Made by a program: the position numbers and the translations under genes. From an uncultured Muribaculaceae bacterium (GTDB lineage Bacteria; Bacteroidota; Bacteroidia; Bacteroidales; UBA932), in contig CAZYQA010000001.1 of assembly GCA_964649555.1 (NCBI GenBank), positions 1 through 40,149 of the forward strand: 40,149 bases of DNA, written 5' to 3'. Below, piece after piece: positions 14,324-40,149 of the stretch; position 1 is the first letter of the stretch, and each line of letters starts with the position of its first letter. The notes under the pieces are model-generated. The model made no database searches and was not told the DNA's origin. It saw nothing but the letters and a program-made list of their open reading frames with translations.

Positions 14324-14337
14324 AATCAACTATACAT

Positions 14338-16323: not shown

Positions 16324-16358
16324 ATTTTTCTGTTTTAATTATTTCTGTTTTTTTCGGG

Positions 16359-16395: not shown

Positions 16396-16423
16396 TCGGC
16401 TCGTTGCTAAGTGCATTACGGCA

Positions 16424-17887: not shown

Positions 17888-17935
17888 ACTTTTTTTTAAA
17901 ATAATTGTTACTATTTTGTTTTAAATTATTACTTA

Positions 17936-19261: not shown

Positions 19262-19274
19262 ATTCGTTCAGCTA

Positions 19275-20630: not shown

Positions 20631-20636
20631 TGTTAT

Positions 20637-23334: not shown

Positions 23335-23342
23335 TCACAGTT

Positions 23343-23621: not shown

Positions 23622-23633
23622 AACTACCAAATA

Positions 23634-23903
23634 ATGGATATATTAGACCATAAATCACCGCAAATTTACTCGTTCTTTGAGAGTCTGAACGAGCTTTCAA
23701 ACGCCATTCAAATAGCACTTAAAAGCCGTACTCCACACCTGAACGGTGAAAAGTATCTCACCAACCGAGAGGTTTGCCAACTACTCCGTATCTCTCCCCG
23801 TACCCTCCAAAACTGGAGGGACACGGGCAAAATTAAGTTTATTCGACTGAATGGTAAGATTCTGTATAGAGAATTAAGTATTTTATTGTCATTAAAACCA
23901 TAA
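23634..23903 (+). CDS. Helix-turn-helix (excisionase-like HTH_17) protein with a divergent, apparently replaced C-terminus
   Basis: 89 aa. Reads LNGEKYLTNREVCQLLRISPRTLQNWRDTGKIKFIRLNGKILYRE, homologous to the 29926..30219 product up to YRE. It then ends in the unrelated LSILLSLKP. Confidence 0.75.
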   Translation: MDILDHKSPQIYSFFESLNELSNAIQIALKSRTPHLNGEKYLTNREVCQLLRISPRTLQNWRDTGKIKFIRLNGKILYRELSILLSLKP

Positions 23904-26280: not shown

Positions 26281-26476
26281 TTATAATACTACTTGAAACT
26301 TATCCTCGATACGAGATTCTACCCTCTGCATATCTTCGGCAATCTTGTGTTCGGTGATTTTTGCATAAATTTGAGTAGAACGCAAATCACGATGTCCCAA
26401 CATTCGTCTAACACTCTCAATAGGCACTCCTTGCGAGAGGCAAATCTCGGTTGCGTAGGTGTGCCGTAAGCAATGA
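26281..26476 (-). pseudogene. C-terminal fragment of a tyrosine integrase (first gene of the outer element's tandem pair)
   Basis: Family homology covers only HCLRHTYATEICLSQGVPIESVRRMLGHRDLRSTQIYAKITEHKIAEDM.... It ends 13 nt before the next integrase start. The upstream residues MLMPALPCII of the 26281..26505 ORF are not integrase-like. Confidence 0.8.
26470..26476. repeat. Left copy of the 7-bp direct repeat GCAATGA at the integrase break point
   Basis: Identical 7-mer at 39877-39883. Both copies encode the in-frame His-Cys (cat tgc) of the integrase H.xR box on the minus strand. Confidence 0.6.
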
Positions 26477-26612
26477 ATAATACACGGCAAAGCAGGCATA
26501 AGCAAGATGAAGAAAGCTAGCAGGTAATATGTTTGAAATGAGTTAGTTTGCGGTTATTTGCAGTTTTAGAAAAATGAGGAATAAAGCGAAATTATGCGAT
26601 ATTTCCGTTACC

Positions 26613-26624
26613 AAATCGTTAGCT
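26613..26624. repeat. Left copy of the subterminal 12-bp direct repeat AAATCGTTAGCT
   Basis: Identical 12-mer at 39801-39812. The copies lie about 140 bp and about 65 bp inside the proposed element ends. Confidence 0.5.
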
Positions 26625-26725
26625 TATTAGTTACCAACCTGAAACAGGTAACTCATAGCAGATAAAAGAATTGCAAACCAAATACTATTTCGCTGATTCA
26701 CACTATTTTGCATGTCAATGAACGC

Positions 26726-26761
26726 TTGTAAACCCGATAACTTTGCTGTCGAAATATCGAC
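26726..26761 (+). promoter_or_regulatory. Long imperfect hairpin/palindrome just upstream of the first inner-element integrase
   Basis: GATAAC(TT)TGCTGTCG-AAATAT-CGACAGCAGTTATC gives 14 paired positions with a 2-nt bulge. It ends 28 nt before ATG 26790. Confidence 0.4.
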
Positions 26762-26789
26762 AGCAGTTATCACAAAAATTATAAGCGTT

Positions 26790-28019
26790 ATGAAAAACGA
26801 AAAATTCAAGGTATTACTCTACCTCAAAAAGAGTAGCCCCGATAAGTCGGGCAAAGCCCCAATTATGGGGCGTATTACCGTTGGGCGTTCAATGGCTCAA
26901 TTCAATTGCAAAATCTCTTGTGCACCCACACTCTGGAATCCCCGAGAGAGCCGATTAAATGGCAAATCAAAAGTGGCGGTAGCCACTAATGCCAAGTTGG
27001 ATAAGTTACTGCTATCAATTAACGAGGCTTACAACTCACTCTTGGAACGTAAGCAACAATTCTCGGCAACCGATGTAAAGGAACAGTTTCAGGGAAGTGT
27101 AGAGACTCAAATGACTCTGCTCAGACGATTGGTGTTATACACTGATGACTTAAAATCTCGTGTAGGTGTTGATGTTGCCAAAGGAACCATTCCGAATTAT
27201 CACTACACTCATAAATCTCTTGTCGAATTCATCAAACTAAGGTTCAATGTTTCGGATATGGCATTCGGGCAACTCAACGAACAGTTTATTCGGGATTATC
27301 AAGATTTTTGCTTGATGGATAAAAGTTTGGCTATGGACACTGTACGCCACTACTTGGCTATTTTGAAGAAGATTTGTAAGATGGCATTCAAAGAAGGTGC
27401 ATCCGAGAAGTGCCATTTTGCACATTACAAACTACCTAAACAAAAAGAGAGTACCCCTAAAGCCCTCTCTCGTGAGGACTTTGAAAAGATACGAGACCTT
27501 GATATCCCAAAGCAGAGAACTTCGTATGTTATAACAAGAGACCTTTTTCTTTTTGCCTGTTATACGGGTACTTCGTATGCCGACACGGTGTCTATTACCG
27601 AAGATAACCTTTCCAGAGACGATAATGGTGAATTATGGCTAAAATACCGCCGAAAGAAAAATGAGATGTTGGCACGGGTAAAACTACTACCCGAAGCATT
27701 AGACCTGATAGAGAAGTATAAGAGTTCGGATCGTGATACACTTTTTCCTGTACAACATTATGCTACTCTTAGAGCCAATATGAAAGGTCTTCGGGTAATG
27801 TCGGGAATGAAAGAAGATTTGGTCTACCATGCCGGAAGGCACTCATTTTCGAGTCTTATCACATTAGAGCAGGGAGTACCCATTGAGACTATCAGTCGCA
27901 TGCTTGGTCATAGTAATATTAAGACTACCCAAGTGTACGCCCGTGTGACCCCGAAGAAACTATTTGAGGATATGGATAAGTTTATCGAAGCAACACAAGA
28001 TTTAGTATTAACCCTATAA
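26790..28019 (+). CDS. Tyrosine site-specific integrase (inner element, first of tandem pair)
   Basis: 409 aa counted from ATG 26790 (MKNEKFKVLLYLKKSS...). Motifs: FACYTGTSYAD, HAGRHSFSS, LGHSNIKTTQVYARV. The extension to 26712 in the ORF track is not family-like. Confidence 0.9.
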   Translation: MKNEKFKVLLYLKKSSPDKSGKAPIMGRITVGRSMAQFNCKISCAPTLWNPRESRLNGKSKVAVATNAKLDKLLLSINEAYNSLLERKQQFSATDVKEQFQGSVETQMTLLRRLVLYTDDLKSRVGVDVAKGTIPNYHYTHKSLVEFIKLRFNVSDMAFGQLNEQFIRDYQDFCLMDKSLAMDTVRHYLAILKKICKMAFKEGASEKCHFAHYKLPKQKESTPKALSREDFEKIRDLDIPKQRTSYVITRDLFLFACYTGTSYADTVSITEDNLSRDDNGELWLKYRRKKNEMLARVKLLPEALDLIEKYKSSDRDTLFPVQHYATLRANMKGLRVMSGMKEDLVYHAGRHSFSSLITLEQGVPIETISRMLGHSNIKTTQVYARVTPKKLFEDMDKFIEATQDLVLTL

Positions 28020-28030
28020 TATTAAAAGCG

Positions 28031-29233
28031 ATGCGTAGCACATTTTCTATATTATTCTATATCAATAGAAACAAAGTAAAAGCAGACGGCACAACTGCCG
28101 TTATGTGTAGAATCTCCATAGATGGCAAAATATCGGTTCTCTCAACGGGCGTAAACTGCAATCCCGAACATTGGAAACTAGAGAGTAAAAACAACAAAGA
28201 GTTACTAAAATTACGAACCACCATTGAGCAGACATACGATAAAATACTCAAAGATACAGGTGTTGTCAGTGCAGAACTGCTGAAAAATACCATTGTAGGG
28301 GTAAATGCAGTACCTACGACTTTGTTACAAGCAGGAGAGGTTGAGCGGGAGCGGTTAAGACTTCGTTCAATTGAGATAAAATCAACATCATCACATAGAC
28401 AAAGTAAGACAACCCAACTAAATCTGAGCGATTATATTCAATCTCGTGGATTGATAGATATACCATTTGCGGATATTACAGAGGAGTTCGGAGAGTCTTT
28501 TAAGGTTTTTCTAAAACGTGAGCGAGATTACAGTGCTTCACATATTAACCATTGTCTTTGCTGGTTAAATCGGCTTATTTACATAGCAGTAGATCAAGAG
28601 ATAATTCGCTACAATCCATTGGAGGAGGTAAAATACGAGAAGAAGAAAGCTCCACAGATACGCCATATTACACGCAATCAACTAAAACAGTTGATGCAGA
28701 CCCCGATGCAAGACAAGATGATGGAACTTGCCAGACGGATGTTTATCTTTTCATCGTTCTGTGGTTTGGCTTATGTGGATATATTAAGGCTCTATCCGCA
28801 CCATATCGGCAAAGCATCTGATGGTAGACTCTATATCCGTCAGAAGCGAGGCAAGACTAAGGTAGAGGCCTTTGTTCCACTGCATCCCATTGCCGAGCGA
28901 ATACTTATGATGTACAACACCACCGATGAAACAAACCCAGTATTTCCACTTCCAAATAGAGATTTGCTTTGGCGAGATATTAACGCCATCGGAATAGCCT
29001 TTGGATTTAAGCAGAACCTTTCGCATCATCAAAGTCGGCACACGTTCGGAACTCTCTTACTTTCAGAGGGTATTTCGATTGAAAGTATTGCCAAGATGAT
29101 GGGGCATACAAATATTTCGAGCACTCAAGTTTATGCAAAAGTTACCGATGATAAAATTTCAGAGGATATGGATAAACTTATCCAAAGACGCAAAACAATG
29201 AAAAATGATGTAAATAACACGACACAATTATGA
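28031..29233 (+). CDS. Tyrosine site-specific integrase (inner element, second of tandem pair)
   Basis: 400 aa. Reads STFSILFYINRNK..., FSSFCGLAYVD, HQSRHTFGT, MGHTNISSTQVYAKV. Starts 11 nt after the previous integrase. Confidence 0.9.
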   Translation: MRSTFSILFYINRNKVKADGTTAVMCRISIDGKISVLSTGVNCNPEHWKLESKNNKELLKLRTTIEQTYDKILKDTGVVSAELLKNTIVGVNAVPTTLLQAGEVERERLRLRSIEIKSTSSHRQSKTTQLNLSDYIQSRGLIDIPFADITEEFGESFKVFLKRERDYSASHINHCLCWLNRLIYIAVDQEIIRYNPLEEVKYEKKKAPQIRHITRNQLKQLMQTPMQDKMMELARRMFIFSSFCGLAYVDILRLYPHHIGKASDGRLYIRQKRGKTKVEAFVPLHPIAERILMMYNTTDETNPVFPLPNRDLLWRDINAIGIAFGFKQNLSHHQSRHTFGTLLLSEGISIESIAKMMGHTNISSTQVYAKVTDDKISEDMDKLIQRRKTMKNDVNNTTQL

Positions 29234-29592
29234 AAAGAAATGTAATTACAATCAGCGATAACGATAAAATAACCGTTCCTGATAATATAAAAATGAATAT
29301 CACTGAAATTTCCCATCTTTTTGGACTATACTACCAACAAACTAAAAAGGCCATCCGAGAGATTGAAAAATCAAATATAGCACAAGGTGATTTTTCTACT
29401 GGCGGAGAAGTCGAAAACTCTAAGATTTACCCTGATTACTACGGATTGGATATGGTTATTGGGGTAGCTTTTAGAGTAAACACCTATGAGGCAGATGTTT
29501 TTAGAAAATGGATATTAAAGCGAATAACTATCCACCAAAAACAATCACCGCATATATTTATCCAACTACCATCAACTCAAATTTTCAACTAA
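29230..29592 (+). CDS. RhuM-like small DNA-binding protein (N-terminal RhuM-type region only)
   Basis: 120 aa. Its ATG overlaps the integrase stop (ATGA). ITEISHLFGLYYQQTKKAIREIEKSN and YYGLDMVIGVAFRVNTYEADVFRKWI resemble the conserved N-terminal region of RhuM family proteins. Confidence 0.5.
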   Translation: MKRNVITISDNDKITVPDNIKMNITEISHLFGLYYQQTKKAIREIEKSNIAQGDFSTGGEVENSKIYPDYYGLDMVIGVAFRVNTYEADVFRKWILKRITIHQKQSPHIFIQLPSTQIFN

Positions 29593-29835
29593 TGAAATAT
29601 ATTTTTAAATAATGCCCCAATCGGGTGCACTCATTTTCGTATGCAGGGCAAAGATTGTTTCGGTAGAGAGAACATTCAAGTTCAAGCCCTTGTAGGGTTA
29701 CGACTGAAATCTCCACACCTTCGCTTTAGCTTCGGGTTGTATTTAAGTCGTAAAACTTGCCTGTACACTCTCCCTACACAAGAGAAGCCCCTGCAACGAA
29801 AACGACCGACCCGACAATGACGCATAGTTCCAATA

Positions 29836-29875
29836 ACAGAAAAAGCACATCTTAAGAAAGATATGCTTTTTCTGT
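29836..29875. terminator. Hairpin between convergent RhuM-like and HTH genes (likely bidirectional terminator)
   Basis: Perfect 12-bp stem ACAGAAAAAGCA (29836-29847) / TGCTTTTTCTGT (29864-29875), with further pairing possible inside the loop. It lies about 50 nt downstream of the 29926 stop on the minus strand. Confidence 0.5.
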
Positions 29876-29925
29876 TTAATGCGTCTGCAACTTCAACTCC
29901 CTTACCTCTAAATCTGCATAGATTA

Positions 29926-30219
29926 TCATTTACGTGCCTTAATATAGTGTTTTGATAACATCTCTTGTATATCACTCTCTGCATACAAACACTTGCCTCT
30001 TAAAGCAATATAAGCTATTTTTCCTTCTGTGCGCCAATCCTGTAGAGTACGCCTGCTTACTTTCAATCTTGCCGACACTTCTCGGTCGGTTAGATAAGTT
30101 TCACCATTTAGGGATACCTTACGGTTGTTGGTTAACTTTTCAATGCTTGCCAAAATTCTATCAAGCGTTTTTACAAACCCAAGCACTTGCGGATTCTCTT
30201 TTGTTATAATTGTACTCAT
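29926..30219 (-). CDS. Helix-turn-helix (excisionase-like HTH_17) protein
   Basis: 97 aa. Reads LNGETYLTDREVSARLKVSRRTLQDWRTEGKIAYIALRGKCLYAESDIQEML. Overlaps the upstream HTH gene by 4 nt (ATGA). Confidence 0.8.
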   Translation of the reverse strand: MSTIITKENPQVLGFVKTLDRILASIEKLTNNRKVSLNGETYLTDREVSARLKVSRRTLQDWRTEGKIAYIALRGKCLYAESDIQEMLSKHYIKARK

Positions 30220-30500
30220 ACCTTTTTCTGTTTTAATCGGTTAATTACTTGCTCTACATCTTCAGGGCGATAGAACATCTTATGCCCAACCTCGCTAAAC
30301 GCTAAAGTTCCGTTGTCTCTATATGTTTGAAGCGTTCTTTTTGAGATACTGAGTATCTCGCACACATCCTGATTATCGAGCCACTTTTGCAGGCTCTTAT
30401 CTTCACTGTTTTTACATAGAATTTCGACCCTCTGGGCAATGGCATCAAGCTTCGCCATCATCATCTCCCAAGCTTGGGATTCTACATTGATTATTTCCAT
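30216..30500 (-). CDS. Helix-turn-helix (excisionase-like HTH_17) protein
   Basis: 94 aa. Reads WLDNQDVCEILSISKRTLQTYRDNGTLAFSEVGHKMFYRPEDVEQVI. Homolog of the 23062..23334 product. Confidence 0.8.
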   Translation of the reverse strand: MEIINVESQAWEMMMAKLDAIAQRVEILCKNSEDKSLQKWLDNQDVCEILSISKRTLQTYRDNGTLAFSEVGHKMFYRPEDVEQVINRLKQKKV

Positions 30501-30700
30501 AATTTATATCATTTAATTGGTTTGACTTCTATTTCTAAAAGCAAAGAAATAATGAAAAATTAAGCAAACAATGGGTTTCTGGAAAGTGGCAGCTTGTGGC
30601 GTCAGAATGGAAGTGATTGGCGTTAGAGCCAGGGAAAGTGTCAAAACGGAATCATAGATTCAAATACTAACTCTATTGTATCGCTCAATCATTGTAGACG

Positions 30701-30748
30701 TGAATCTTTACGACAGTACGACAATGAATCTTTGCGTCAGTACGACAA
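30701..30748. repeat. Tandem 24-bp direct repeat (2 units, 22/24 identical)
   Basis: TGAATCTTTACGACAGTACGACAA (30701-30724) is followed immediately by TGAATCTTTGCGTCAGTACGACAA (30725-30748). Confidence 0.8.
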
Positions 30749-31061
30749 TAAATTTATGAATCAATAACAAAGCAGCTACTTGAATCAATACTTTTGTAAA
30801 GACCTGATGTCGTATGTCAACAAGACACTACTTAATGGAATCATTAAAGGCTTTAATCAGCAAATCTTTACATAGTTGCTTATCTGATGAATCAATGATG
30901 TAAATTGGGCGTTCTATTCGCATTAATTAGAAGCAGTGTAGTATAACTTGCTGCATATTGCTTGATTATGCATAAAAAATAAACTATCCGATACGAACAA
31001 TATCATATTGGTAGATGAATTATAATAAACCGTCTCGGGTTCCTTGATATTGATTTACTTG

Positions 31062-31086
31062 AATCCGTCACCACGACGGATTTTTA
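31062..31086 (+). terminator. Orphan rho-independent-terminator-like hairpin
   Basis: AATCCGTC-ACCAC-GACGGATT followed by TTTAT. No plus-strand ORF lies upstream within about 500 nt. Confidence 0.45.
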
Positions 31087-31403
31087 TGTTCATCAGAACA
31101 TAGCAAGGTGTCTTTTGAGTTACTCAAAAGTCGGAGAGTAACTCTCCAAACCTTGCCCTTGCAGGGAGCAATCTCCCTCCGAAGTCGGGAAATTTAAACA
31201 GATGTTGATTGATTCGCAAATAGCATTAAAACTATAATGAATTATTGTCGAAAACAGAAGAGTGAACTCAAAGAGTTTAAATCTGAACTTTCGATTTTGG
31301 AGCGTAAAATCCAGTTGGAGCTTGCACCACCTGATAAGTCGGAGCAGATTTCTGGCAATGCCAAAGAGCAAAGTCTAAATAAAAAATTTGGATAATTGAA
31401 ATA

Positions 31404-31424
31404 ATGTTCGTAATTTTGCGAACA
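31404..31424 (+). promoter_or_regulatory. Operator-like palindrome, site 1 (ATGTTCGTA-N6-CGAAC), overlapping a TAnnTTTG -7 box; putative arsR promoter/operator
   Basis: ATGTTCGTAATTTTGCGAACA. The inverted repeat is GTTCG-N8-CGAAC and the embedded box is TAATTTTG (31411-31418). A TTTG lies 20 nt upstream, and ATG 31444 lies 20 nt downstream. Confidence 0.6.
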
Positions 31425-31443
31425 CAAAAGAGTAGATATATTT

Positions 31444-31767
31444 ATGGCTAAAAAGAAATATACACAACAAGAGGAGCAGTTGGCACGTTTCGCAAAAGCG
31501 TTAGGTCATCCTGCACGTATTGTTATATTGAAATTCTTAGCTGCGCAAGATAGTTGCTTTTTTGGCGACATACACGAGGTGCTGCCTATTGCTAAGGCTA
31601 CTGTGTCACAACACTTGACGGAATTGAAAAATGCAGGATTGATTCAAGGTGAGATTCAACCACCAAAGGTAAGATATTGCATTAATCTTGAGAATTGGAT
31701 GTTAGCAAAATCTCTATTTTCTGAGTTTTTGAAAGAAGATAAGACACATAAAGGTTGTTGTAAGTAA
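31444..31767 (+). CDS. arsR: ArsR/SmtB family metalloregulatory repressor
   Basis: 107 aa. Winged-HTH pattern LARFAKALGHPARIVILKFL....SCFFGDI.EVLPIAKATVSQHL.ELKNAGLI. Cysteines at positions 38, 79, 105 and 106 (C-terminal GCCK). Confidence 0.85.
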   Translation: MAKKKYTQQEEQLARFAKALGHPARIVILKFLAAQDSCFFGDIHEVLPIAKATVSQHLTELKNAGLIQGEIQPPKVRYCINLENWMLAKSLFSEFLKEDKTHKGCCK

Positions 31768-31786
31768 TAACTATTTTTTGTAAATT

Positions 31787-31807
31787 ATGTTCGTAGTTTT
31801 GCGAACT
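31787..31807 (+). promoter_or_regulatory. Operator-like palindrome, site 2, overlapping a TAnnTTTG -7 box
   Basis: ATGTTCGTAGTTTTGCGAACT with embedded TAGTTTTG (31794-31801). Lies between arsR and the Trx-like gene, about 60 nt upstream of ATG 31868. Confidence 0.55.
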
Positions 31808-31867
31808 ACAAACAACAAAAAGGAGTGATTTATATTGAATTATAATAATTTAAATAAGAACAAAACA

Positions 31868-32101
31868 ATGGAAATTAAAGTATTGGGAACTGGCTGTGCA
31901 AGTTGCAAGGCTCTCCATGAAACAGTTAAGCAAGCAGTCGCAGAATTGGGTATTGAGGCTACAGTAATCAAAGAAGAAGATTTGATGCAGATTATGAACT
32001 ACAACGTTATGTCAATGCCGGGATTAGTAATTGACGAAAAAGTAGTTTCGGCAGGTAAGAAACTATCTGTTGCAGATGTAAAATCATTATTAACCAAATA
32101 A
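31868..32101 (+). CDS. Small thioredoxin-fold protein (TM0996/MTH895 glutaredoxin-like, redox-active disulfide protein type)
   Basis: 77 aa from ATG 31868. Reads MEIKVLGTGCASCKAL... with a CxxC near the N-terminus and a MSMPGLVIDEKVV.(S)G segment. This family is commonly linked to ArsR and DUF318 permease genes. Confidence 0.75.
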   Translation: MEIKVLGTGCASCKALHETVKQAVAELGIEATVIKEEDLMQIMNYNVMSMPGLVIDEKVVSAGKKLSVADVKSLLTK

Positions 32102-32111
32102 ACTATCTACA

Positions 32112-32546
32112 ATGAAAAAGATATTATTTGCTTTGATAGCTATCCTAACTCTATCTTCTTGTGGCAATAGCCAAAATGCAAATGCTCAATCTTCTGCAAA
32201 ATCTACACAGAAAGATATTATAGAGGTTCTATATTTTCATGGCAAACAACGATGCATCACTTGTAATGCCATCGAAAAACTAACAAAAGAGGTTGTAGAA
32301 AAAGATTTTGCCGAGCAAGTCAAAGATGGTAAAATAGTATTTAAGGTTATAGACATTTCAACAAAAGAGGGCGAAAAGGTAGCAGATAAATACGAGGTTA
32401 CTTGGTCGTCGCTGTTTATTAATAAATGGAAGGACGGAAAAGAGTCTAAAAACAATATGACTGATTTTGGTTTCTCTTACGCAAAAAACTCACCAGACGT
32501 TTTCAAAGCAGGAGTAAAGAAAAAGATTGATGAACTTCTTAAATAA
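32112..32546 (+). CDS. Thioredoxin-fold lipoprotein with CxxC motif (CITC)
   Basis: 144 aa. Has a lipobox (LSSC), then EVLYFHGKQRCITCNAIE.... Confidence 0.6.
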   Translation: MKKILFALIAILTLSSCGNSQNANAQSSAKSTQKDIIEVLYFHGKQRCITCNAIEKLTKEVVEKDFAEQVKDGKIVFKVIDISTKEGEKVADKYEVTWSSLFINKWKDGKESKNNMTDFGFSYAKNSPDVFKAGVKKKIDELLK

Positions 32547-32554
32547 TTTGGTTC

Positions 32555-33265
32555 ATGGAGTTTTTACAATCTCTTTTAGAAAATAGCAATATGCCGATTG
32601 TAACGGCTTTTCTGCTTGGAATTTTAACCGCAATAAGTCCGTGTCCATTAGCTACTAATATCACGGCAATAGGATATATAAGCAAAGAGTGCGGAGCCGC
32701 ACGGGCAATTTTTTGGAGGGGCATACTCTATACGGTTGGTCGTGTTATCACCTATACAGTCTTAGGATTTATCATTATCCCGATTTTACGAGAGGGTGCG
32801 AGTGTGTTTGCTTTGCAGAAAGTAATCTCTAAATATGGTGAGATGCTGATAGCTCCTGCTCTGATTTTAATTGGACTATTTATGCTTTTTGGAAGCAAAC
32901 TAAACTTACCTAAATTTGGATTTAGCGGTAATGGAAGCGATAAGCTAAAACAAAAAGGAAGTTGGGGAGCATTGATGCTTGGTGTATTGTTTTCATTAGC
33001 ATTCTGTCCTACAAGCGGCGTATTCTACTTTGGAATGTTGATGCCGATGTCGGCAGCAGAAACGGGTGGTTATCTATTGCCTGTTGTTTTTGCTATTGCT
33101 ACGGGATTGCCCGTTATTATAGTTGCTTGGATATTGGCATATAGCGTAGCCGGACTGGGTAAATTCTATAACCGCATACAAGTATTTCAAAAATGGTTCT
33201 CAAAGATAGTTGCTATTCTATTTATTGCAGTGGGTATTTATTACGCAATCATGTTTTATCTATAA
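32555..33265 (+). CDS. CcdA/DsbD-family transmembrane thiol:disulfide electron-transfer protein
   Basis: 236 aa with about 6 TM helices. One Cys sits in each of two helices next to Pro (AISPCPLA and LAFCPTSG), as in CcdA-type transporters. Confidence 0.7.
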   Translation: MEFLQSLLENSNMPIVTAFLLGILTAISPCPLATNITAIGYISKECGAARAIFWRGILYTVGRVITYTVLGFIIIPILREGASVFALQKVISKYGEMLIAPALILIGLFMLFGSKLNLPKFGFSGNGSDKLKQKGSWGALMLGVLFSLAFCPTSGVFYFGMLMPMSAAETGGYLLPVVFAIATGLPVIIVAWILAYSVAGLGKFYNRIQVFQKWFSKIVAILFIAVGIYYAIMFYL

Positions 33266-33277
33266 AAAATATCATAA

Positions 33278-33733
33278 ATGAAAGTATTGATTCTCTGTAC
33301 AGGTAACAGTTGTCGTAGTCAAATGGCACACGGTTTTTTACAATCGTTTGACAAGGATTTGATTGTTTGTTCGGCAGGAACAAAAGCGGCAGGAAAGCTC
33401 AACGAAGGAGCAGTAAAGGCGATGGCTGAGGTTGGTGTTGATATTTCGGAACACACTTCAGATTCGGTTGAAAAGTATCTTGGTGATCAGTGGGATTACG
33501 TGATTACAGTCTGTGGTGGAGCTAACGAGAGTTGTCCAACGTTCACAGGAGATGTAAAACACCGCATACATATCGGTTTTGACGATCCATCGCACGCCGA
33601 AGGAACACCCGAATTTATCGAGAGTGAGTTTCGTCGTGTAAGAGATGAGATTAAAAATCGTTTCTACGAATTTTATATCAAAGAGATTCGCAAACAAGAG
33701 TTACCAAAGTGTTCTTGTGGCGGTAACTGCTAA
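33278..33733 (+). CDS. arsC: Arsenate reductase, LMW-PTP/thioredoxin-coupled type, with a Cys-rich C-terminal extension
   Basis: 151 aa. Has the P-loop ILCTGNSCRSQMA and the second Cys pair VITVCGGANESCP. An extra tail ends ...PKCSCGGNC. Confidence 0.9.
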   Translation: MKVLILCTGNSCRSQMAHGFLQSFDKDLIVCSAGTKAAGKLNEGAVKAMAEVGVDISEHTSDSVEKYLGDQWDYVITVCGGANESCPTFTGDVKHRIHIGFDDPSHAEGTPEFIESEFRRVRDEIKNRFYEFYIKEIRKQELPKCSCGGNC

Positions 33734-33745
33734 TCAATTATAAGT

Positions 33746-34789
33746 ATGGAAAAGAAACAAGGCATAGGCTTTTTTGAACGATACCTGACGATTTGGGTAG
33801 CTCTGTGTATCGTTGTGGGAATTGGCATAGGTCAATACATCCCTATTATACCCGATACGTTAAGTAAATTTGAGTATGCTAACGTGTCGATACCTGTAGC
33901 AATACTGATTTGGTTGATGATCTATCCGATGATGCTTAAAGTCGATTTTCAGAGTGTGAAAAATGTAGGAAAGCGACCCAAAGGCATTATGATAACCTGT
34001 GTTACCAATTGGTTGATTAAGCCTTTTACGATGTTTGGTATTGCGTGGTTATTCTTTTTTGTGATTTTCAAAGCATTGATTCCTGCGGATTTGGCAAATG
34101 AATACCTGGCAGGTGCGGTACTACTTGGTGCAGCTCCATGTACGGCGATGGTCTTTGTGTGGAGTTATCTAACAAAAGGAGATGCCGCTTATACACTTGT
34201 GCAGGTTGCCGTAAATGACTTGATTATCCTTGTGGCATTTGCCCCTATTGTAGCATTCTTGTTGGGCGTTGGTGGTGTAACGATTCCTTGGGACACGTTA
34301 TTGCTATCAGTTGTGCTGTTTGTGGTAATTCCGCTATCGGCAGGTGTACTGACTCGCGCGTCGATAGTAAAACGCAAAGGTATAGAGTACTTCAATAATG
34401 TATTTGTGAAGAAGTTTGACAATTTCACAATTGGTGGACTGCTTTTGACATTGGTGATTTTGTTCTCGTTTCAGGGGGAAACAATACTCAATAATCCACT
34501 ACACATTCTTTTGATAGCTGTACCACTGATAATCCAAACAGTAATGATTTTCTTTGTTGCCTATGGTTGGTCTAAAGCGGCAAAATTACCTCACAATATA
34601 GCTGCTCCGGCAGGAATGATTGGTGCGAGTAACTTCTTTGAGTTGGCGGTTGCCGTTGCCATATCACTGTTCGGTCTGCAGTCGGGAGCTGCACTTGCTA
34701 CGGTGGTAGGTGTATTGGTTGAAGTTCCTGTTATGTTAATGTTGGTTCGTATCGCAAACAATACACACAGGTGGTTCCCTGCAAAGTAA
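33746..34789 (+). CDS. acr3: ACR3 family arsenite efflux transporter
   Basis: 347 aa, polytopic. Reads [23 protein letters not shown], and P...[14 protein letters not shown]. Confidence 0.9.
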
Positions 34790-34817
34790 GTCAAATCTTA
34801 AAACAATAATAAATAGT

Positions 34818-35567
34818 ATGAAATCATTAAAAACAATTTTAATGCTATTAGCAGTGTCGTTTTCTGTAATGAGTTGTTCTGCACAAAAGAGTAATGATAC
34901 AGTAAAGGAACAATTAGCTAAGGCAAAGGAGAAAGAAAATACCGTATTCATGGTAGTAACGGATAGTAAAACACCTGCTGATAAGCTAACCCAACTTATA
35001 ACGGAAGCTACGCAAGAGTTATCGCAAACACAAATTATCCAAATGAACGCAGACGATGAAAAGAATGCTGAATTGGTTAAAGAGTATAGACTTAGTGGAG
35101 CACCGATGCCACTTGTACTTCTTTTCTCAAATAAAGGATTAATGTTGGGCGGAATGATGGAAGAACAAGTAACAAAAGAAAATATTGTTAATGCTATTCC
35201 TACTCCTAAATATAGCGAAATTACGTTTGCACTAAGTCAAGGAAAACCTGTATTGGCGATTGTCTCAAACAGTAAATTCAAAAACGATAAAGCGGCAAAA
35301 GAAGTTTGTAATACAGCAAATAAGGAGATGAACGATAAAGCCGAAATAATTGTGATTGACACCGAAGATGCCAAAGAGAGTAAGTTGATAGAGATGCTTA
35401 ATATTAAAGTGAAATTAGAGGATAGCTTTATAGTAGCCATTAACGGACAAGGAATTATGTCTGGACGCTTCGATGTTATACCAACGAAGGAAGATTTAAT
35501 CGCTGCAGCAACAAAAGTAGTACAAAGTGGTTGTGCTCCGGGTGGCTGTGGACCGACTTGTGATTAG
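34818..35567 (+). CDS. Hypothetical lipoprotein: two tandem thioredoxin-fold-like repeats without CxxC, plus a Cys-rich C-terminal tail
   Basis: 249 aa. Has a lipobox (VMSC). An internal duplication is visible (ENTVFMVVTDSK... versus GKPVLAIVSNSK...). The tail is SGCAPGGCGPTCD. Confidence 0.5.
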   Translation: MKSLKTILMLLAVSFSVMSCSAQKSNDTVKEQLAKAKEKENTVFMVVTDSKTPADKLTQLITEATQELSQTQIIQMNADDEKNAELVKEYRLSGAPMPLVLLFSNKGLMLGGMMEEQVTKENIVNAIPTPKYSEITFALSQGKPVLAIVSNSKFKNDKAAKEVCNTANKEMNDKAEIIVIDTEDAKESKLIEMLNIKVKLEDSFIVAINGQGIMSGRFDVIPTKEDLIAAATKVVQSGCAPGGCGPTCD

Positions 35568-35574
35568 TCTATAA

Positions 35575-35600
35575 TTTAGCCACAATAATATGTGGCTAAA
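35575..35600 (+). terminator. Hairpin after the lipoprotein gene (possible terminator/attenuator between the two modules)
   Basis: Perfect 10-bp stem TTTAGCCACA / TGTGGCTAAA with a 6-nt loop, 8 nt after the stop codon. No clear U-tract follows. Confidence 0.45.
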
Positions 35601-35612
35601 AATTTAAAAACA

Positions 35613-35633
35613 ATGTTCGTATAAATACGAACT
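35613..35633 (+). promoter_or_regulatory. Operator-like palindrome, site 3
   Basis: ATGTTCGTATAAATACGAACT. Here the palindrome extends to GTTCGTAT-AA-ATACGAAC. It ends 16 nt upstream of ATG 35650. Confidence 0.55.
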
Positions 35634-35649
35634 AAATAATAATAAAAAC

Positions 35650-36153
35650 ATGAGTAAAAAAAGAATTATTGGAACAACGTCAGTAGGAATACTATCTTCG
35701 ATACTGGCATTTTTAGGGGTGGTTTCATGTTGCGGACTACCCATCATAGCCGGAGCATTAGCTTGGCTTGGAATCGGAGCTTCACAACTTAGCTTCTTTG
35801 CAGAATATCGTCCGATATTTATCGGCATTGCCATTGTTGCCCTTCTATTTGGATTTTGGCAAGTCTATTTCAAAAAGAAATCTTCTTGTTGTTCTACAAC
35901 CTCTTGTTGCGGAACTCCGAGCGAAGAAGAAAAACCATCAAAATCAAATCTATTTCAAAAGATTTTTTTGTGGATAGGAGCAATCGTAATTGTATTGATG
36001 CTTATTCTGGGAGAACAGAATGCTCCCGCAGAGCAACAAAACAATCCCCTATCACCTCAAATTCAGTTGCAGAACAGCTCTTCAGGTTGTTGTCCTTCTG
36101 AACCTGTACAAGAAACAAAAAAAGAACAATCGGGTTGTTGCCCTCAACAATAA
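35650..36153 (+). CDS. MerT-family-like membrane protein with extra Cys-rich loop and tail
   Basis: 167 aa. TM1 has a vicinal CC (VVSCCGLPIIAGAL). AEYRPIFIGIAIVALLFGFWQVY parallels the MerT EPYRPLFIGAALVAL... segment. The cytoplasmic loop reads SCCSTTSCCG. A third TM helix is present, and the tail carries SSGCCPSE and SGCCPQQ. Confidence 0.65.
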   Translation: MSKKRIIGTTSVGILSSILAFLGVVSCCGLPIIAGALAWLGIGASQLSFFAEYRPIFIGIAIVALLFGFWQVYFKKKSSCCSTTSCCGTPSEEEKPSKSNLFQKIFLWIGAIVIVLMLILGEQNAPAEQQNNPLSPQIQLQNSSSGCCPSEPVQETKKEQSGCCPQQ

Positions 36154-36159
36154 AATAAA

Positions 36160-37071
36160 ATGAATACACTTTTAGATACATTACAGTATTTCGTGCTTAT
36201 CACGCTGGAGTTGATAGCACTCTTTATGCTCATTAGTGCCATCGTGGAGATTATATTGATGTATATTCCACAAGAGACGATCCGTAAAAAATTGTCGGGC
36301 AAAGGTATCACAGGAAATGTTTTAGGAGCTGTTTTTGGCTCACTAACTCCATTTTGTGCATGCTCTACAATTCCTATGACCGTAGGTTTCCTCAATGCAG
36401 GAGTGCCGTTTGGGTCAGTTATGTCGTTTCTTATCTCCTCTCCACTTCTAAACCCTATCATCATCGGAATGTTAGGTGCATTGGTTGGTGTGAAAGCCGC
36501 TATCATCTATTTCGCTATTGCGTTTGTCTGCTCGGTAGCATTTGGAATTATATTGGAAAAGATGGGCGGCATCAAGTATGTAAAAAACGTACGAGTTAAA
36601 CCAAGTTGTTGTTGTAACGGAGCTGCCGAAGAGGTGGTTGATAAACGAGCATTGCCATTTGGTCAAAAGGTGAAACTTGCATTTAAAGCTGCGTGGGATA
36701 GCCTACGTCCTATTATGGGTTATCTGCTTATTGGTGTTGCTCTTGGTGCAGGTATATATGGATATATGCCTGAAGATTTTGTAGTAAAAATTGCAGGAAG
36801 TGACAACTTGTTTGCAGTACCTATTGCGGCGATTTTAGGAGTTCCGCTTTATATTCGTGCCGAAACTGCTATTCCTATTGGTTTGGCTTTGATGGGTAAA
36901 GGTATGAGTATCGGGGCTGTTGTCGCATTGATTATCGGCGGTGCAGGTATGGCAATCCCTGAAATGACAATGCTCGCCAGCATTTTCAAGAAGAAACTTG
37001 TAGCAATGATTGTTATAACAATTTTCTTGACTGCGGTTATTGGAGGTTATTTGTTTAACGTATTACTATAA
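36160..37071 (+). CDS. DUF318/ArsP-type predicted permease
   Basis: 303 aa, polytopic. Reads SLTPFCACSTIPMTVGF and SSPLLNP, has a central loop with PSCCCNG, and its second half repeats the fold. Confidence 0.75.
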   Translation: MNTLLDTLQYFVLITLELIALFMLISAIVEIILMYIPQETIRKKLSGKGITGNVLGAVFGSLTPFCACSTIPMTVGFLNAGVPFGSVMSFLISSPLLNPIIIGMLGALVGVKAAIIYFAIAFVCSVAFGIILEKMGGIKYVKNVRVKPSCCCNGAAEEVVDKRALPFGQKVKLAFKAAWDSLRPIMGYLLIGVALGAGIYGYMPEDFVVKIAGSDNLFAVPIAAILGVPLYIRAETAIPIGLALMGKGMSIGAVVALIIGGAGMAIPEMTMLASIFKKKLVAMIVITIFLTAVIGGYLFNVLL

Positions 37072-37083
37072 AAATATAAAATC

Positions 37084-37266
37084 ATGGAAGATAAAAAGGA
37101 AAAGAAAGGTTTTTGGGCTTCATTATTCACCCCTAAATCATGCGATTGTTGTTGTGGTACTCAAATCGAAGAGGTCACAGAAGAGGATGCTCAACAAGTA
37201 GAGCAAGAAAAACAGGAAGATAAAAAAGAGGATAAACCGACCTGCGATTGTGGAGGTAATTGTTAA
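37084..37266 (+). CDS. 60-aa Cys-rich acidic peptide (candidate metal/metalloid-binding protein)
   Basis: MEDKKEKKGFWASLFTPKSCDCCCGTQIEE...KPTCDCGGNC. Eight Cys fall in two clusters separated by an E/Q/K-rich linker. The gene is packed between two permease genes. Confidence 0.5.
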   Translation: MEDKKEKKGFWASLFTPKSCDCCCGTQIEEVTEEDAQQVEQEKQEDKKEDKPTCDCGGNC

Positions 37267-37283
37267 TTGATTTAGAAAGTAAT

Positions 37284-38252
37284 ATGATACAAGATTTTGC
37301 CGATTGGTTGGTGTATGGGGTCTTTGGATTGGATGCCGCCTCACACCTTGGAGCAGCCGTAAACTTCTTCTTTTACGACACGATAAAGATTCTTATTCTG
37401 CTCTTTTTGATTAGTGCGATTATGGGAGTCGTAAATGCATACTTTCCTATCGACCGTCTACGCAATTTTCTAACAACACGTAAGTTGTACGGGTTTCAGT
37501 ACTTCTTTGCGGCTTTGTTTGGAGCGATAACTCCGTTTTGTAGTTGCTCGTCTATTCCTCTATTTATAGGATTTGTAAAGGGAGGTATTCCACTTGGAGT
37601 AACATTCGCATTTTTAATAACATCACCTCTTGTCAATGAGGTTGCAGTCGCTATGTTCTTGGGGACATTTGGACTTAAAGCTACGCTGATTTATGCAATT
37701 TCAGGTATTTTACTAGGAACTATTGGTGGTTTTATTCTCGAGAAATTCAAGTTAGATAAGTACTTGAGTCCTTGGGTTAAGCAAATACAGGCTCAATCTG
37801 AGGCTGAAACGGCAGAATGGGAAACTGCTCATATCCCTTTTATGAAACGACTACCAACAATCATTAAAGATGCGTGGGGAATTGTTCGTGGTGTGCTGTT
37901 GTATGTAATTATTGGTATTGGTATCGGTGCTGCTATGCATGGATTTGTGCCAGAAGGATTCTTCGAGACTTACCTTTCAACCGATAAATGGTATAGCGTT
38001 CCATTAGCTGTGATTCTTGCCGTTCCGATGTATGCCAATGCCGCAGGTATCGTTCCTGTGATTCAGGTGTTTGTTGCCAAAGGCGTACCACTGGGCACTG
38101 CCATCGCCTTTATGATGGGTGTTGTAGGGCTATCGCTACCGGAAGCAACATTGCTCAAAAAAGTAATGACTTGGCGTTTGATAGGGATATTCTTTGGGGT
38201 GGTAGCTCTGTTTATTATTCTTTCCGGATATCTGTTTAATATGATTCTGTAA
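37284..38252 (+). CDS. DUF318/ArsP-type predicted permease (paralog)
   Basis: 322 aa from ATG 37284 (MIQDFADWL...). Reads AITPFCSCSSIPLFIGF and TSPLVNE. The ORF-track start at 37260 is a TTG that overlaps the previous gene. Confidence 0.75.
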   Translation: MIQDFADWLVYGVFGLDAASHLGAAVNFFFYDTIKILILLFLISAIMGVVNAYFPIDRLRNFLTTRKLYGFQYFFAALFGAITPFCSCSSIPLFIGFVKGGIPLGVTFAFLITSPLVNEVAVAMFLGTFGLKATLIYAISGILLGTIGGFILEKFKLDKYLSPWVKQIQAQSEAETAEWETAHIPFMKRLPTIIKDAWGIVRGVLLYVIIGIGIGAAMHGFVPEGFFETYLSTDKWYSVPLAVILAVPMYANAAGIVPVIQVFVAKGVPLGTAIAFMMGVVGLSLPEATLLKKVMTWRLIGIFFGVVALFIILSGYLFNMIL

Positions 38253-38710
38253 TGAAAAAATACAAAGTATATATTCCGGTCGTACTAATTGCATTAATGT
38301 TCTTTTCGCTGATTATTTTCCGAAAAGATATGGTTAAATTTATATCTCAAAGTAAAATAGAGCAATTGGCAGTTTCCACGAAAGATAAGATAGCAGATAG
38401 TATTGCAAAGAGATATGACTACACTCAAAATGGCGAAAGCTATCAATATACTTTCCTCGAATTTGGTTCGACAGGTTGCCACGCCTGTCGCCAAATGGAG
38501 GGAGTAATGGAAGAGATAAAAACTAAATACATAGGAAAAGTCAAAGTTGTATTTATTAATCTTCGTGAACCTGAAAATAGGGATTTAGGAGACTACTATG
38601 GTATTGCAACGATACCAACACAAGTATTGTTAGATAAAACAGGAAAGGAATTTTTTCGACACGAAGGGTTTTATTCGGCTGAAGAATTATCTGAACATTT
38701 TAAAATATAA
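38252..38710 (+). CDS. Membrane-anchored thioredoxin family protein
   Basis: 152 aa. Has an N-terminal TM helix, then FLEFGSTGCHACRQMEGVM (CxxC) and a TIPTQVLLDKTGKE thioredoxin-fold segment. Its start overlaps the permease stop (TAATG). Confidence 0.8.
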   Translation: MKKYKVYIPVVLIALMFFSLIIFRKDMVKFISQSKIEQLAVSTKDKIADSIAKRYDYTQNGESYQYTFLEFGSTGCHACRQMEGVMEEIKTKYIGKVKVVFINLREPENRDLGDYYGIATIPTQVLLDKTGKEFFRHEGFYSAEELSEHFKI

Positions 38711-38758
38711 GCTAAAATCAAAATCGAGAAATAGAATGTAAACACACCTGTAAAAAAT

Positions 38759-39598
38759 ATGATGTGCAAAGAAACAGAAATAGAGTGTTCATTTGTATAT
38801 AGTCACTACAATGTAGGTGATATTAGAAGTTGTAAAAAGTCTGACTTTCACGTATTGGTATTTTGCATTAGCGGACATGTTAAAGTATTGGACAATCTAT
38901 TCCCAGAAGAATATTTATGTGCAGGTGAAATTTTGTTTGTGCCACGTGGAAGAGATTATAAAACATTAGCTTTAAGCGACTCTATCCTTTTGATTCATTG
39001 TTTTTCTAATACGGTGTGTAAAATAGAGAACTGTATATTATCATTTCTTTATACGCATAAGCAGATTTGCACTGACACAAGAAAACCATATTATTTTAGT
39101 AAGTTGCCGACATGTGAGCAACTTTCACATCTTTTAGATGGTATTGGTAGTTACATCTCTGATGAAAAATATGAGCCGAAGTTGTGGGCTATGAAGCATA
39201 AGGAGTTAATGTGGCTCTTTACGAAATATTACTCACATGAAGAACTACAACTCTTCTTTCATCCAATGATCGATGAGCAGATACCATTCAAAAGTTTAGT
39301 GTTGGCACACTATCGCAAAGCGGAATACACCGATAAGTTAGCCGAGATGTGCGGCTATCCGTTATATACGTTTCGCCGAATTTTTAAAGCTGAATTTGGC
39401 ATTTCTCCCCACAGATGGCTCACAATGAAACGAGCGGAGCTTATTCAATATCGTCTATCGCTACACTATATTCCATTTTTGGATATTATAGAAGAGTTTA
39501 ATTTCTCTTCTCCTCAGCAATTCAACCGTTTCTGTAAAGAAAATTTAGGGGATTCACCAACTGCTCTACGCAAAAAGGCTCTTAGAAAGAAATTATGA
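38759..39598 (+). CDS. AraC family transcriptional regulator
   Basis: 279 aa. The N-terminal region looks cupin-like. The C-terminal double HTH reads LAEMCGYPLYTFRRIFKAEFGISPHRWL...FSSPQQFNRFCKENLGDSPTALR. Confidence 0.85.
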   Translation: MMCKETEIECSFVYSHYNVGDIRSCKKSDFHVLVFCISGHVKVLDNLFPEEYLCAGEILFVPRGRDYKTLALSDSILLIHCFSNTVCKIENCILSFLYTHKQICTDTRKPYYFSKLPTCEQLSHLLDGIGSYISDEKYEPKLWAMKHKELMWLFTKYYSHEELQLFFHPMIDEQIPFKSLVLAHYRKAEYTDKLAEMCGYPLYTFRRIFKAEFGISPHRWLTMKRAELIQYRLSLHYIPFLDIIEEFNFSSPQQFNRFCKENLGDSPTALRKKALRKKL

Positions 39599-39800
39599 AT
39601 AAAGCATATACAGCATATTATTCTCCCAAAATACAATAATGATAAAAAAGAAAGGGTATATAGTATTTATTTGATTTTTAGAATTATATTATGTTGTTTG
39701 TGTTTGATAGTTGTAGCAAAATTACTATCTTTGCAAAGACAAAGTTGTTCATTGAGATGTAAAGCAAAACTGTGCTAATTTCTGCGGTTCGCTCGTTTCT

Positions 39801-39812
39801 AAATCGTTAGCT
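39801..39812. repeat. Right copy of the subterminal 12-bp direct repeat AAATCGTTAGCT
   Basis: Identical to 26613-26624. Confidence 0.5.
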
Positions 39813-39876
39813 ACGCAGATTTTAATAACTTCAAGTCCTTGATTATTAGCTGAGAATAGGATTTTGTCTGTCTTCC

Positions 39877-39883
39877 GCAATGA
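39877..39883. repeat. Right copy of the 7-bp direct repeat GCAATGA at the integrase break point
   Basis: Identical to 26470-26476. Integrase-family similarity of the 39811..40143 ORF stops exactly here (…RLIYHC|GRQTKSY...). Confidence 0.6.
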
Positions 39884-40149
39884 TAGATAAGCCTACGTTC
39901 TATATTACAGAGTTTTGCGATGATTTTTAGGTTCTTATTTAGTCTGCCACAACTAAGCATCGGAAGCAGTTTTCCATCTTTGGCAATACCTCTATACTTC
40001 TCGATAATCTGTTTGGGTAACTCCAAAAGTGGAATATCACACGGTGTTCCAGTCTTTTGTCTGGAAGTTCTAATCCATAGCACCCCATCATCGGCTTTTA
40101 CTATATGGTCGGGTGTGAGGTTGCAGATATCACGATACGCCAAGCCAGT
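39877..40149 (-). pseudogene. Central part of a tyrosine integrase, 3'-truncated; the N-terminus lies beyond the window end
   Basis: ...AYRDICNLTPDHIVKADDGVLWIRTSRQKTGTPCDIPLLELPKQIIEKYRG...NLKIIAKLCNIERRLIYHC aligns with the corresponding region of the 24984..26267 integrase. The next 22 codons down to the stop at 39811 are unrelated. Confidence 0.8.

Follow-up and report, generated by a model that had tools for sequence, protein, structure and literature searches.

A tandem-recombinase element of Bacteroidales that very probably homes to the H-x-x-R-H codons of integrase genes

Introduction

Among the elements that invite comparison with the one considered here, CTnDOT and the NBU elements carry a single integrase, and their targets are short chromosomal sequences or the ends of tRNA genes. 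This article concerns a 13.4-kb element with two tyrosine recombinase genes, int1 and int2, found inside an integrase gene of another mobile element on contig CAZYQA010000001.1 of an uncultured Muribaculaceae bacterium (GenBank assembly GCA_964649555.1); the whole stretch analyzed, positions 1 to 40,149 of the contig (40,149 nucleotides), is referred to as the window. The two elements are called inner and outer, and the interrupted integrase gene and its intact neighbor are called intA and intB. We consider it very probable that the 13.4-kb segment represents a widespread Bacteroidales int1-int2 element whose attachment (att) site is the DNA encoding the integrase H-x-x-R-H-[ST]-[FYW]-A box, entered in one orientation by conservative recombination. 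Its recombinases share the layout of those from CTnDOT and NBU (Arm-DNA-bind_5, SAM-like, and catalytic domains), whereas the presence of two recombinases and the use of integrase coding sequence as the target set the inner family apart from both.

Tandem recombinases are also a feature of Tn554 from staphylococci, in which two tyrosine recombinases and a small third gene (TnpA, TnpB, and TnpC) lie at one end. Tn554 inserts in a specific orientation at a single site, att554, without target duplication and with a short core carried along from its previous site. By description, the inner element resembles Tn554 in its two recombinases plus small gene and in its fixed orientation but differs in having many integrase-gene targets; to our knowledge, the Tn554 recombinases lack the Bacteroidales arm-binding domain. 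An integrase gene in two pieces flanking an element likewise recalls the SSV-type archaeal integrases, whose own gene is split upon integration, since attP lies inside it, and is restored upon excision. In the present case, by contrast, int1 and int2 are intact, and the split gene is a foreign one that belongs to the outer element and is 35-38% identical to them.

In layout, the inner element can be likened to MTnPi1-3, integrative mobilizable elements from Prevotella intermedia that are 16-18 kb in size and encode two adjacent, mutually dissimilar integrases together with a relaxase and a primase (Naito et al. 2016, PMC4755523; PMC5704250). Circles of MTnPi1-3 formed by excision were shown by PCR, a copy without the second integrase did not excise, and the elements appear to need both integrases (PMC4755523). 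Their att core is TTAC-N5-AA (TTAC/TTGC-N5-AA), with five unconstrained nucleotides, and the att sites are palindromic repeats (AAAAGCGGCTGTT TTAC N5 AA AAGCGGCT...) annotated as hypothetical proteins (PMC4755523, including supplementary figure S2). The inner element shares this "Tyr duo" arrangement of two adjacent, distant recombinase genes at one end (26% identical in the window; int2 follows int1 in 68 of 68 evaluable relatives). Unlike MTnPi1-3, the window copy is without relaxase or mobilization genes, and the junctions of its family read CAY-N5-[AG]AG[AT]CACA and CAY-N5-N-CGN-CAY and lie within integrase genes. TnNimB/MTnBf8, also considered as a comparison, was set aside as a different, single-integrase element.

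The five exchangeable bases have a parallel in IntDOT, the CTnDOT integrase, for which identity is needed only beside the first cleavage site while mismatches are tolerated across the rest of the overlap (PMC2817482); a CAY triplet followed by an exchangeable N5 fits such an overlap. Element-on-element targeting is established for streptococcal integrative and mobilizable elements (IMEs), with IME_oriT inserting at the nic site of oriT in Tn916/ICESt3-type elements (PMC5704250). As in that case, the inner element occupies a conserved, essential site of its host element, and the guest would travel with or interfere with that host; the differences are that streptococcal IMEs target oriT or conjugation genes, whereas here the phylum and the recombinases are other ones and the target is the catalytic motif of the host's recombinase. 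No published description of integrase catalytic-motif codons as an attachment site was found in the full-text literature, the coverage of which was incomplete, so that an earlier description is possible. Already known, then, are the tandem layout, exchangeable coupling sequences, and guests that target conjugative elements; the choice of integrase codons as the target was not found described.

A Split Integrase Gene in the Window

The plus strand of the window contains two copies of GCAATGA, at 26470-26476 and 39877-39883, spaced by 13,407 bp; on the minus strand, in the frame of the integrase fragments, each copy reads T-CAT-TGC. The reading frame of intA breaks off at the right-hand copy and resumes at the left-hand one, where the fragment reads LRHTYATEICLSQGVPIE...QIYAKIT... 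and then ends in a stop codon. Removal of the intervening 13,407 bp rejoins the two fragments in frame into a 153-aa product with a Pfam Phage_integrase match (E = 1.5e-13, profile positions 34-169), and 13 nt separate its stop from the start of intB, the intact integrase gene. An earlier note on this DNA had reported the repeat, the in-frame rejoining, and the 13-nt spacing, all of which were reproduced; its positions for the His-Cys codons were one base too high, and these codons occupy 39882-39877 and 26475-26470.

The chance of one given 7-mer at one given position here is about 6e-5, and a chance repeat is better countered by the fact that the same intact homologues match both halves of intA. 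Homologues retrieved in a protein search cover 98-100% of the joined sequence. With each half scored alone, the N and C halves are 88% and 94% identical to P0001, 87% and 94% to P0002, and 88% and 88% to P0003; over the intact homologues P0001-P0006, identities range from 84 to 89% for the N-fragment and from 78 to 94% for the C-fragment. The earlier note had considered an origin of the fragments in two different genes, and P0001-P0003 instead match both. The uninterrupted gene that it anticipated among relatives is represented by L085, the contig encoding P0017, whose DNA is 92% identical to the N-fragment and runs on across the junction, reading ...CTTATCTAC CAT TGCGG ACGGCACACCTACGCAACC... 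over the site (CAT TGCGG ACGGCAC).

The 7-bp repeat described in the earlier note is present, yet it really consists of T, CAT, and the first three of five exchangeable bases. At its full length, it is a 10-bp repeat with two mismatches, TCATTGC[GG]A (39883-39874) and TCATTGC[TT]A (26476-26467). The pentamer on the N side of the window, TGCGG, is the version present in uninterrupted L085 and in P0017 (YHCGRH), and the one on the C side, TGCTT, is the commonest 5-mer at the C-side junction in the family (11 loci). Judged from these sequences, the motif of intA before the insertion was most likely HCGRH and not the HCLRH that the earlier note had read across the repaired site.

By the insertion, the H-x-x-R Arg, the second His, and the nucleophilic Tyr are severed from the remainder of the protein, and the recombinase encoded by the split gene is therefore inactivated, in agreement with the earlier note. 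The outer element, whose limits lie outside the view of the window, is presumably immobilized as a result. The same note called the outer element related to its guest. This holds at the superfamily level, but the rejoined target is 50% identical to intB (over 151 aa) and only 35-38% to int1 and int2, so that the outer pair represents a different lineage from the inner one. No tRNA gene was found in a scan of the window, and base composition did not delimit either the inner or the outer element.

Target Choice among Relatives

An exact-protein look-up of int2 returned no identical copy on record elsewhere, and other sites of the inner element were therefore studied through relatives. Scanning one genome per species with an int1 alignment identified 287 relatives, of which the best 80 loci (67-78% int1 identity) were fetched; 77 had sufficient upstream DNA to be evaluated. 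Among the hosts are Bacteroides, Parabacteroides, Phocaeicola, Segatella/Prevotella, Dysgonomonas, Muribaculaceae, and Prolixibacteraceae as well as other groups, and a genome often contains more than two copies or at least several.

At 71 of these 77 evaluable loci, the first codon of an integrase C-fragment is precisely the His codon (in some cases a Tyr codon) of H-x-x-R-H. The fragment lies on the strand opposite to int1, with 277-304 nt separating it from the start of that gene, and the orientation is constant. The targets are diverse and fall into 38 clusters at 70% identity, with 63 sequences distinct at 95%. The earlier note's suggestion that further insertions would fall in the H-x-x-R-coding region of integrase genes is thus borne out, and the ends of the relatives lie at the equivalent position. 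Nested elements are common in Bacteroidales, and the window by itself cannot tell targeting from a one-off insertion that landed by chance, with no preference for integrases, in a region crowded with mobile elements. Recurrence at this codon across 63 distinct integrase genes, in a single orientation, together with the resemblance of the rare other sites to the same DNA motif, leaves such a chance landing very little probability.

Those other sites are the six exceptions (L025, L037, L054, L067, L069, and L024), in which the DNA approximately 280-300 nt upstream of int1 is not a recognizable integrase gene but still resembles CAY-N5-N-NRN-CAY-AC(NTTTGC), as in L069 with CAT TAAAA AAAACATACATTTGC. 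Secondary sites of this kind could help to separate the bases read by the recombinases from those constrained by the protein motif. Tandem accretion was considered for L025 and L037 and ruled out, as no right-arm motif is present beyond the junction.

The opposite reading of the C-fragment holds that it is a remnant carried along by the element, or that the fragments stem from different genes, so that nothing was split. A conserved read-through open reading frame (ORF) that runs from the left arm into the fragment, as seen in numerous database proteins such as the 146-aa P0105-P0119, would suit a carried remnant. However, left ends that are identical base for base adjoin unrelated targets, and their constancy ends at the base before CAY, where the sequence switches; the C-fragment therefore belongs to the target and not to the element. 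In the window, L041, L043, and L057, moreover, the far end of the element adjoins a matching N-fragment, and the intact homologues and continuous L085 described above account for both halves of intA. We regard this reading as the least credible of those considered, and the C-fragment is treated below as the severed end of a target gene.

A Pfam scan of 145 ORFs neighboring the targets, which replaced a BLAST panel of mobile-element proteins that recognized the context of just 15 of 65 targets, found enrichment in mobile-element families (HTH_17, AAA_25, Toprim_2, DUF3987, ArdA, ORF6N, and transposases). Two relatives with int1 67% identical to that of the window over 409 aa and int2 57-59% identical, L001 and L003, show an int1-int2-small gene-HTH_17-HTH_17 module abutting an integrase C-fragment. 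The L001 target is the first gene of a tandem pair, near HTH_17, DUF3876, DUF3408, MobC_2, and RteC genes; the gene interrupted in L003 encodes the sole integrase of a conjugative element that is CTnDOT-like and has ParB and TraL-TraQ. Guest genes include a relaxase gene and a BREX gene in L003 and an SNF2 helicase gene in L001.

Elsewhere in the survey, Segatella copri HDE04 (L026, upstream of 10001) harbors a family member inside the int1 of another member, from which it follows that the family can nest within itself. Beyond the C-fragment, which reads HSGRHSFASLITLEAGVP...FEDMDKF, lie genes for a full-length integrase, an HTH_17 protein, and a relaxase.

The protein search with intA also returned many short database entries that are interrupted at the junction residue; L001 and L003 are the contigs of two of them. 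One type consists of N-fragments that end in ...YHxxRH plus a few foreign residues (for example, P0021, as well as P0069 and P0070, "hypothetical proteins" from B. fragilis and B. hominis), and the other consists of a conserved foreign extension followed by the C-part (P0105-P0119). P0069, P0070, P0074, and P0105-P0119, for which public annotation gives hypothetical protein or short integrase, are chimeric read-through products that span a junction and combine part of an integrase with an arm of the element. Some targets are decaying: the N-part in L086 (9462-10543) is split into two ORFs, and the C-fragment in L007 (upstream of 10001) has a frameshift and a stop. The insertions in L086 and L007 are evidently old and no longer reversible.

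Junctions, Arms, and Proposed Mechanism

Both junctions were recovered for the window copy, L057 (~7.3 kb), and L041 and L043 (~11.1 kb), and an extra right end came from L086. A tblastn search for N-fragments up to 10 kb downstream of int1 retrieved those of L057 and the window only, most elements being longer than the flank; two further right junctions were obtained by blastn with the right end of L057. In the orientation of the target gene, the N side consists of target...CAT, 5 nt, and the constant right end [AG]AG[AT]CACA, a layout that L086, L057, and L041 share with the window. The C side consists of the constant left end, CAY, 5 nt, and then N-CGN-CAY-... of the target. Because the right end resembles the Arg-His codons of the target (the CGN-CAY-AC half-site), N-fragments appear to end in x-x-R-H.

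The five bases vary. Those at the two junctions of a single element differ (TCGGG/ATGAG, TCGTG/TGCTT, and GTCTC/TGCTT), and so do those of three pairs of targets (L034/L043, L038/L052, and L053/L057) with an identity of otherwise 95-97.5% across 160 nt. In one of these pairs, the N-side GTCTC of L043 equals the C-side 5-mer of its near-twin L034. Such comparisons point to a heterology-tolerant 5-nt coupling sequence in the family.

Within a subfamily, the left end is constant as far as the last base ahead of CAY. Both arms share an 18-mer, GCTAACG[AG]TTT[AG]G[AT]AAC, which lies 147-148 nt from the junction in the left arm of 47 of the 54 loci with the motif (out of 77) and 66-83 nt from the junction in the right arm; it is a candidate binding site of the arm type or for an accessory protein. 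In the Segatella-type subfamily, an inverted repeat, ATTGTG-N12-CACAAT, surrounds the core; in the window copy, a repeat of this kind is unconvincing. These boundaries bear on the proposal that homologous or illegitimate recombination between paralogous integrase genes produced the arrangement at their most conserved stretch, and the H-x-x-R-H box is indeed the most conserved DNA among the many integrase paralogues of a Bacteroidales genome. The ends of the insert, though, are conserved noncoding arms with a shared 18-mer at a fixed distance rather than integrase coding sequence, the boundaries are base-exact across subfamilies, and the int1 and int2 of the insert are intact, all of which makes recombination between paralogues highly improbable.

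Under the reading that we prefer, insertion at a recombinase-specified att site, the int1/int2 pair would carry out conservative, orientation-specific recombination. The crossover region would comprise the His codon CAY at one edge of the overlap and the adjoining 5 nt, across which element and target would not need to match, and the right half-site would be CGN-CAY-AC-NTT-YGC, kept nearly invariant in every integrase gene by the protein motif. With the 5 nt exchangeable, each junction would retain the version of either the target or the element; in the window, the N side would have kept the native TGCGG and the C side would carry TGCTT. Precise excision would then yield an in-frame gene whichever 5-mer remained, possibly with altered x-x residues. 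Both recombinases presumably act together and are both required, the HTH_17 or small proteins may control the direction of the reaction, and the window copy may still be active. The element would gain by riding on or disabling other mobile elements.

The same insertion mechanism could serve a different end if the element acted as a regulated interrupter whose excision restores the outer integrase, comparable to the sigK and comK elements of Firmicutes. Both fragments are free of stops and frameshifts, precise excision would restore the frame, and a full recombination module with excisionase-like genes is retained. Evidence of regulation is absent, however, the very broad target range fits selfish homing better than a coevolved switch, and some targets are decaying (L007 frameshifted and L086 with a split N-part); a reversible switch is accordingly unlikely, although less so than the other alternatives weighed here.

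Several points count against the reading that we prefer. We infer integration and excision, for the window copy and for all family members alike, from sequence comparison; for the window copy, no exact int2 copy is on record elsewhere to attest recent mobility. The native 5-mer in the window was deduced from a 92%-identical homologue and not from the same gene. A target-site logo does not separate the bases read by the recombinases from those constrained by the protein motif, and relatives more distant than the best 80 of 287 that the survey covers may use different sites, as is the case for MTnPi1-3. Genes for a relaxase, MobC, or DUF3408 were not detected in the window copy, and the joints found in metagenomes (below) look like decayed tandem structures and not clean circles.

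Search for Joined Ends

If the ends join through the proposed core, the resulting joint would read ...GTGTATTATT-CAT-N5-AAGACAGACA..., or in longer form ...GCCGTGTATTATT CAT NNNNN AAGACAGACAAAATCC.... A metagenome scan with a 41-nt joined-ends pattern gave no match. A shorter pattern modeled on Segatella-type joined ends retrieved seven metagenome contigs (L087-L093), in which left arm, CAT TGCT[TC], and right arm follow one another, for example, at 8606-8631 of L091; the 5-mer is TGCTT in six of the seven. These joints demonstrate that both ends can join through the expected core. Their left arm is reduced to a remnant of 132 nt together with 66 nt from the int1 coding region, with no int1 or int2 nearby, and they may represent a decayed tandem array or a nonautonomous derivative. 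Genes beside the joints are cargo-like and encode an AAA ATPase with an HNH-like partner, a radical SAM protein, and a YhcG-like nuclease.

Implications

Integrases decide the movement of conjugative and mobilizable transposons, which are the main carriers of genes for resistance, defense, and polysaccharide use in gut Bacteroidales. A lone nested insertion would be ordinary; the interest of the present case lies in the family-wide targeting of integrase genes. On balance, the evidence tips somewhat toward a broader proposal, namely, that a large clade of Bacteroidales elements with tandem recombinases uses H-x-x-R-H-box DNA as a universal landing site and that its members are parasites of conjugative and mobilizable transposons and of each other. 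Such a family could immobilize, hitchhike on, or compete with many elements at once. If the proposal is true, the host recombinase could be shut off reversibly, guests could ride inside their hosts and form nested arrays, and a repaired integrase might differ in two residues, which would add a so far undescribed level of control to the transfer of genes within the gut microbiota.

The cargo of the relatives relates to resistance or defense, as with arsenic resistance in the window, the BREX gene in L003, and the SNF2 helicase in L001. For genome annotation, the insertions account for many short Bacteroides genes labeled "hypothetical" or "partial integrase", such as those for P0069, P0070, and P0105-P0119. 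The recombinase pair, which occurs naturally and has a target that is compact, portable, and widespread, could also serve as a tool in Bacteroidales genetics.

Gene Content of the Inner and Outer Elements

The inner element comprises, in order, int1, int2, a RhuM-like small gene, two HTH_17 genes, an arsenic-resistance-type cluster, and an AraC-family regulator gene (Table 1).

Table 1. Coordinates of junctions, arms, and genes of the inner and outer elements in the window
Feature	Coordinates	Strand	Description and basis
HTH_17, DUF3876, and HTH_17 accessory genes (outer)	23062-23903	+	Pfam; typical Bacteroidales integrative-element set
intB, intact second integrase (outer)	24984-26267	-	427 aa; Pfam; starts 13 nt past the stop of the split gene
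intA, C-terminal part (outer)	26281-26475	-	Includes stop codon; translation reads H-C-L-R-H-T-Y-A-T...QIYAKIT...
C-side junction	26467-26476	-	T CAT TGCTT A; His codon 26475-26473; TGCTT 26472-26468; then target ACGGCACACC
Left arm (inner)	26477-26789		Conserved 18-mer GCTAACGATTTGGTAACG at 26606-26623 (minus strand), 148 nt from junction
int1, first tyrosine recombinase (inner)	26790-28019	+	409 aa from MKNEKFKV; ORF could start at 26712; Pfam
int2, second tyrosine recombinase (inner)	28031-29233	+	400 aa; Phage_integrase, Arm-DNA-bind_5, Phage_int_SAM_5
Small 120-aa gene overlapping the int2 stop (inner)	29230-29592	+	Pfam Virulence_RhuM, 1.5e-5, under curated cutoff
Two adjacent HTH_17 excisionase-like genes (inner)	29926-30219, 30216-30500	-	Pfam HTH_17, 8e-11 and 1.5e-10; weak NCBIfam "excise"
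Arsenic-resistance-type cluster, cargo (inner)	31444-38710	+	Pfam scans
AraC-family regulator, final gene (inner)	38759-39598	+	HTH_18, 4.9e-14; HTH_AraC, 1.6e-11
Right arm (inner)	39599-39873		Constant core AAGACAGA adjoining junction; 18-mer GCTAACGATTTAGAAACG at 39794-39811 (minus strand); four right ends aligned plus motif search
N-side junction	39874-39883	-	T CAT TGCGG A; His codon 39882-39880; TGCGG 39879-39875; then element right end AAGACAGACA
intA, N-terminal part (outer)	39877-40149	-	Last 91 codons visible, ending ...NIERRLIYHC; gene start past window end

Both recombinases of the inner element are ordinary tyrosine recombinases of the Bacteroidales arm-binding (IntDOT/NBU) type. 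The Phage_integrase profile PF00589 matches int1 (4.7e-16), int2 (2.1e-16), and intB (6.5e-17), in addition to the rejoined target, and PF17293 (Arm-DNA-bind_5) and PF13102 (SAM-like) are found in int1, int2, and intB. Read from the translations, the catalytic residues are YHAGRH...LGH...QVYARV in int1 and HHQSRH...MGH...QVYAKV in int2, so that H-x-x-R, the second His, and the Tyr are kept in both. Searches of the recombinases against NCBIfam and Protein Data Bank (PDB) sequences returned generic Xer/integrase matches only, those from NCBIfam being Xer/integron-integrase matches below cutoff.

The 120-aa weakly RhuM-like gene may encode an accessory protein or a directionality factor; its identity to the corresponding 124-aa genes of L001 and L003 is 33-35%. 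Among relatives, the small gene was detected in 44 of 64 and HTH_17, at the same place as in the window, in 48 of 56; DUF3408 (30 of 55), MobC (27 of 51), and relaxase (22 of 49) genes are also represented, and the family includes mobilizable members, of which the window copy is not one. Between arsR and the HTH_17 genes, at the position where DUF3408, MobC, and relaxase genes occur in relatives, the window has approximately 930 bp (30513-31443) with no ORF longer than 83 aa. No remnants of these three genes were detected there by tblastn, and the region could contain an oriT or a regulatory sequence.

The cargo encodes ArsR, an LMWPc-type ArsC, an ACR3-type transporter (Pfam SBF), two ArsP permeases, and a MerT-like protein, along with a DsbD_2 membrane protein, a lipoprotein, a thioredoxin, a thioredoxin-like protein, and a protein with a thioredoxin fold. 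This composition is unusual for an ars operon in its several thioredoxin-fold and DsbD_2 proteins, its MerT-like membrane protein with a Cys-rich tail (35650-36153), and a 60-aa Cys-rich ORF (CDCCCG...CDCGGNC) at 37084-37266 between the two ArsP permease genes.

In the outer element, intB is 55% identical to the equivalent gene of L001, where the HTH_17/DUF3876/HTH_17 gene set likewise adjoins the split integrase. Between the outer integrase and its HTH_17 genes, positions 23924-24949 encode a 341-aa protein with a weak HepT-like match (nucleotidyltransferase-substrate-binding/RNase), a possible toxin or defense gene of the outer element. Farther to the left, 12530-21851 encodes a tetratricopeptide repeat (TPR) protein, three paralogues with Lcl_C-terminal domains, a DUF6562 protein, and an OmpA-like protein. 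The stretch may be surface-structure cargo of the outer element. The G+C content is locally higher, 0.40-0.44, at 15000-19500.

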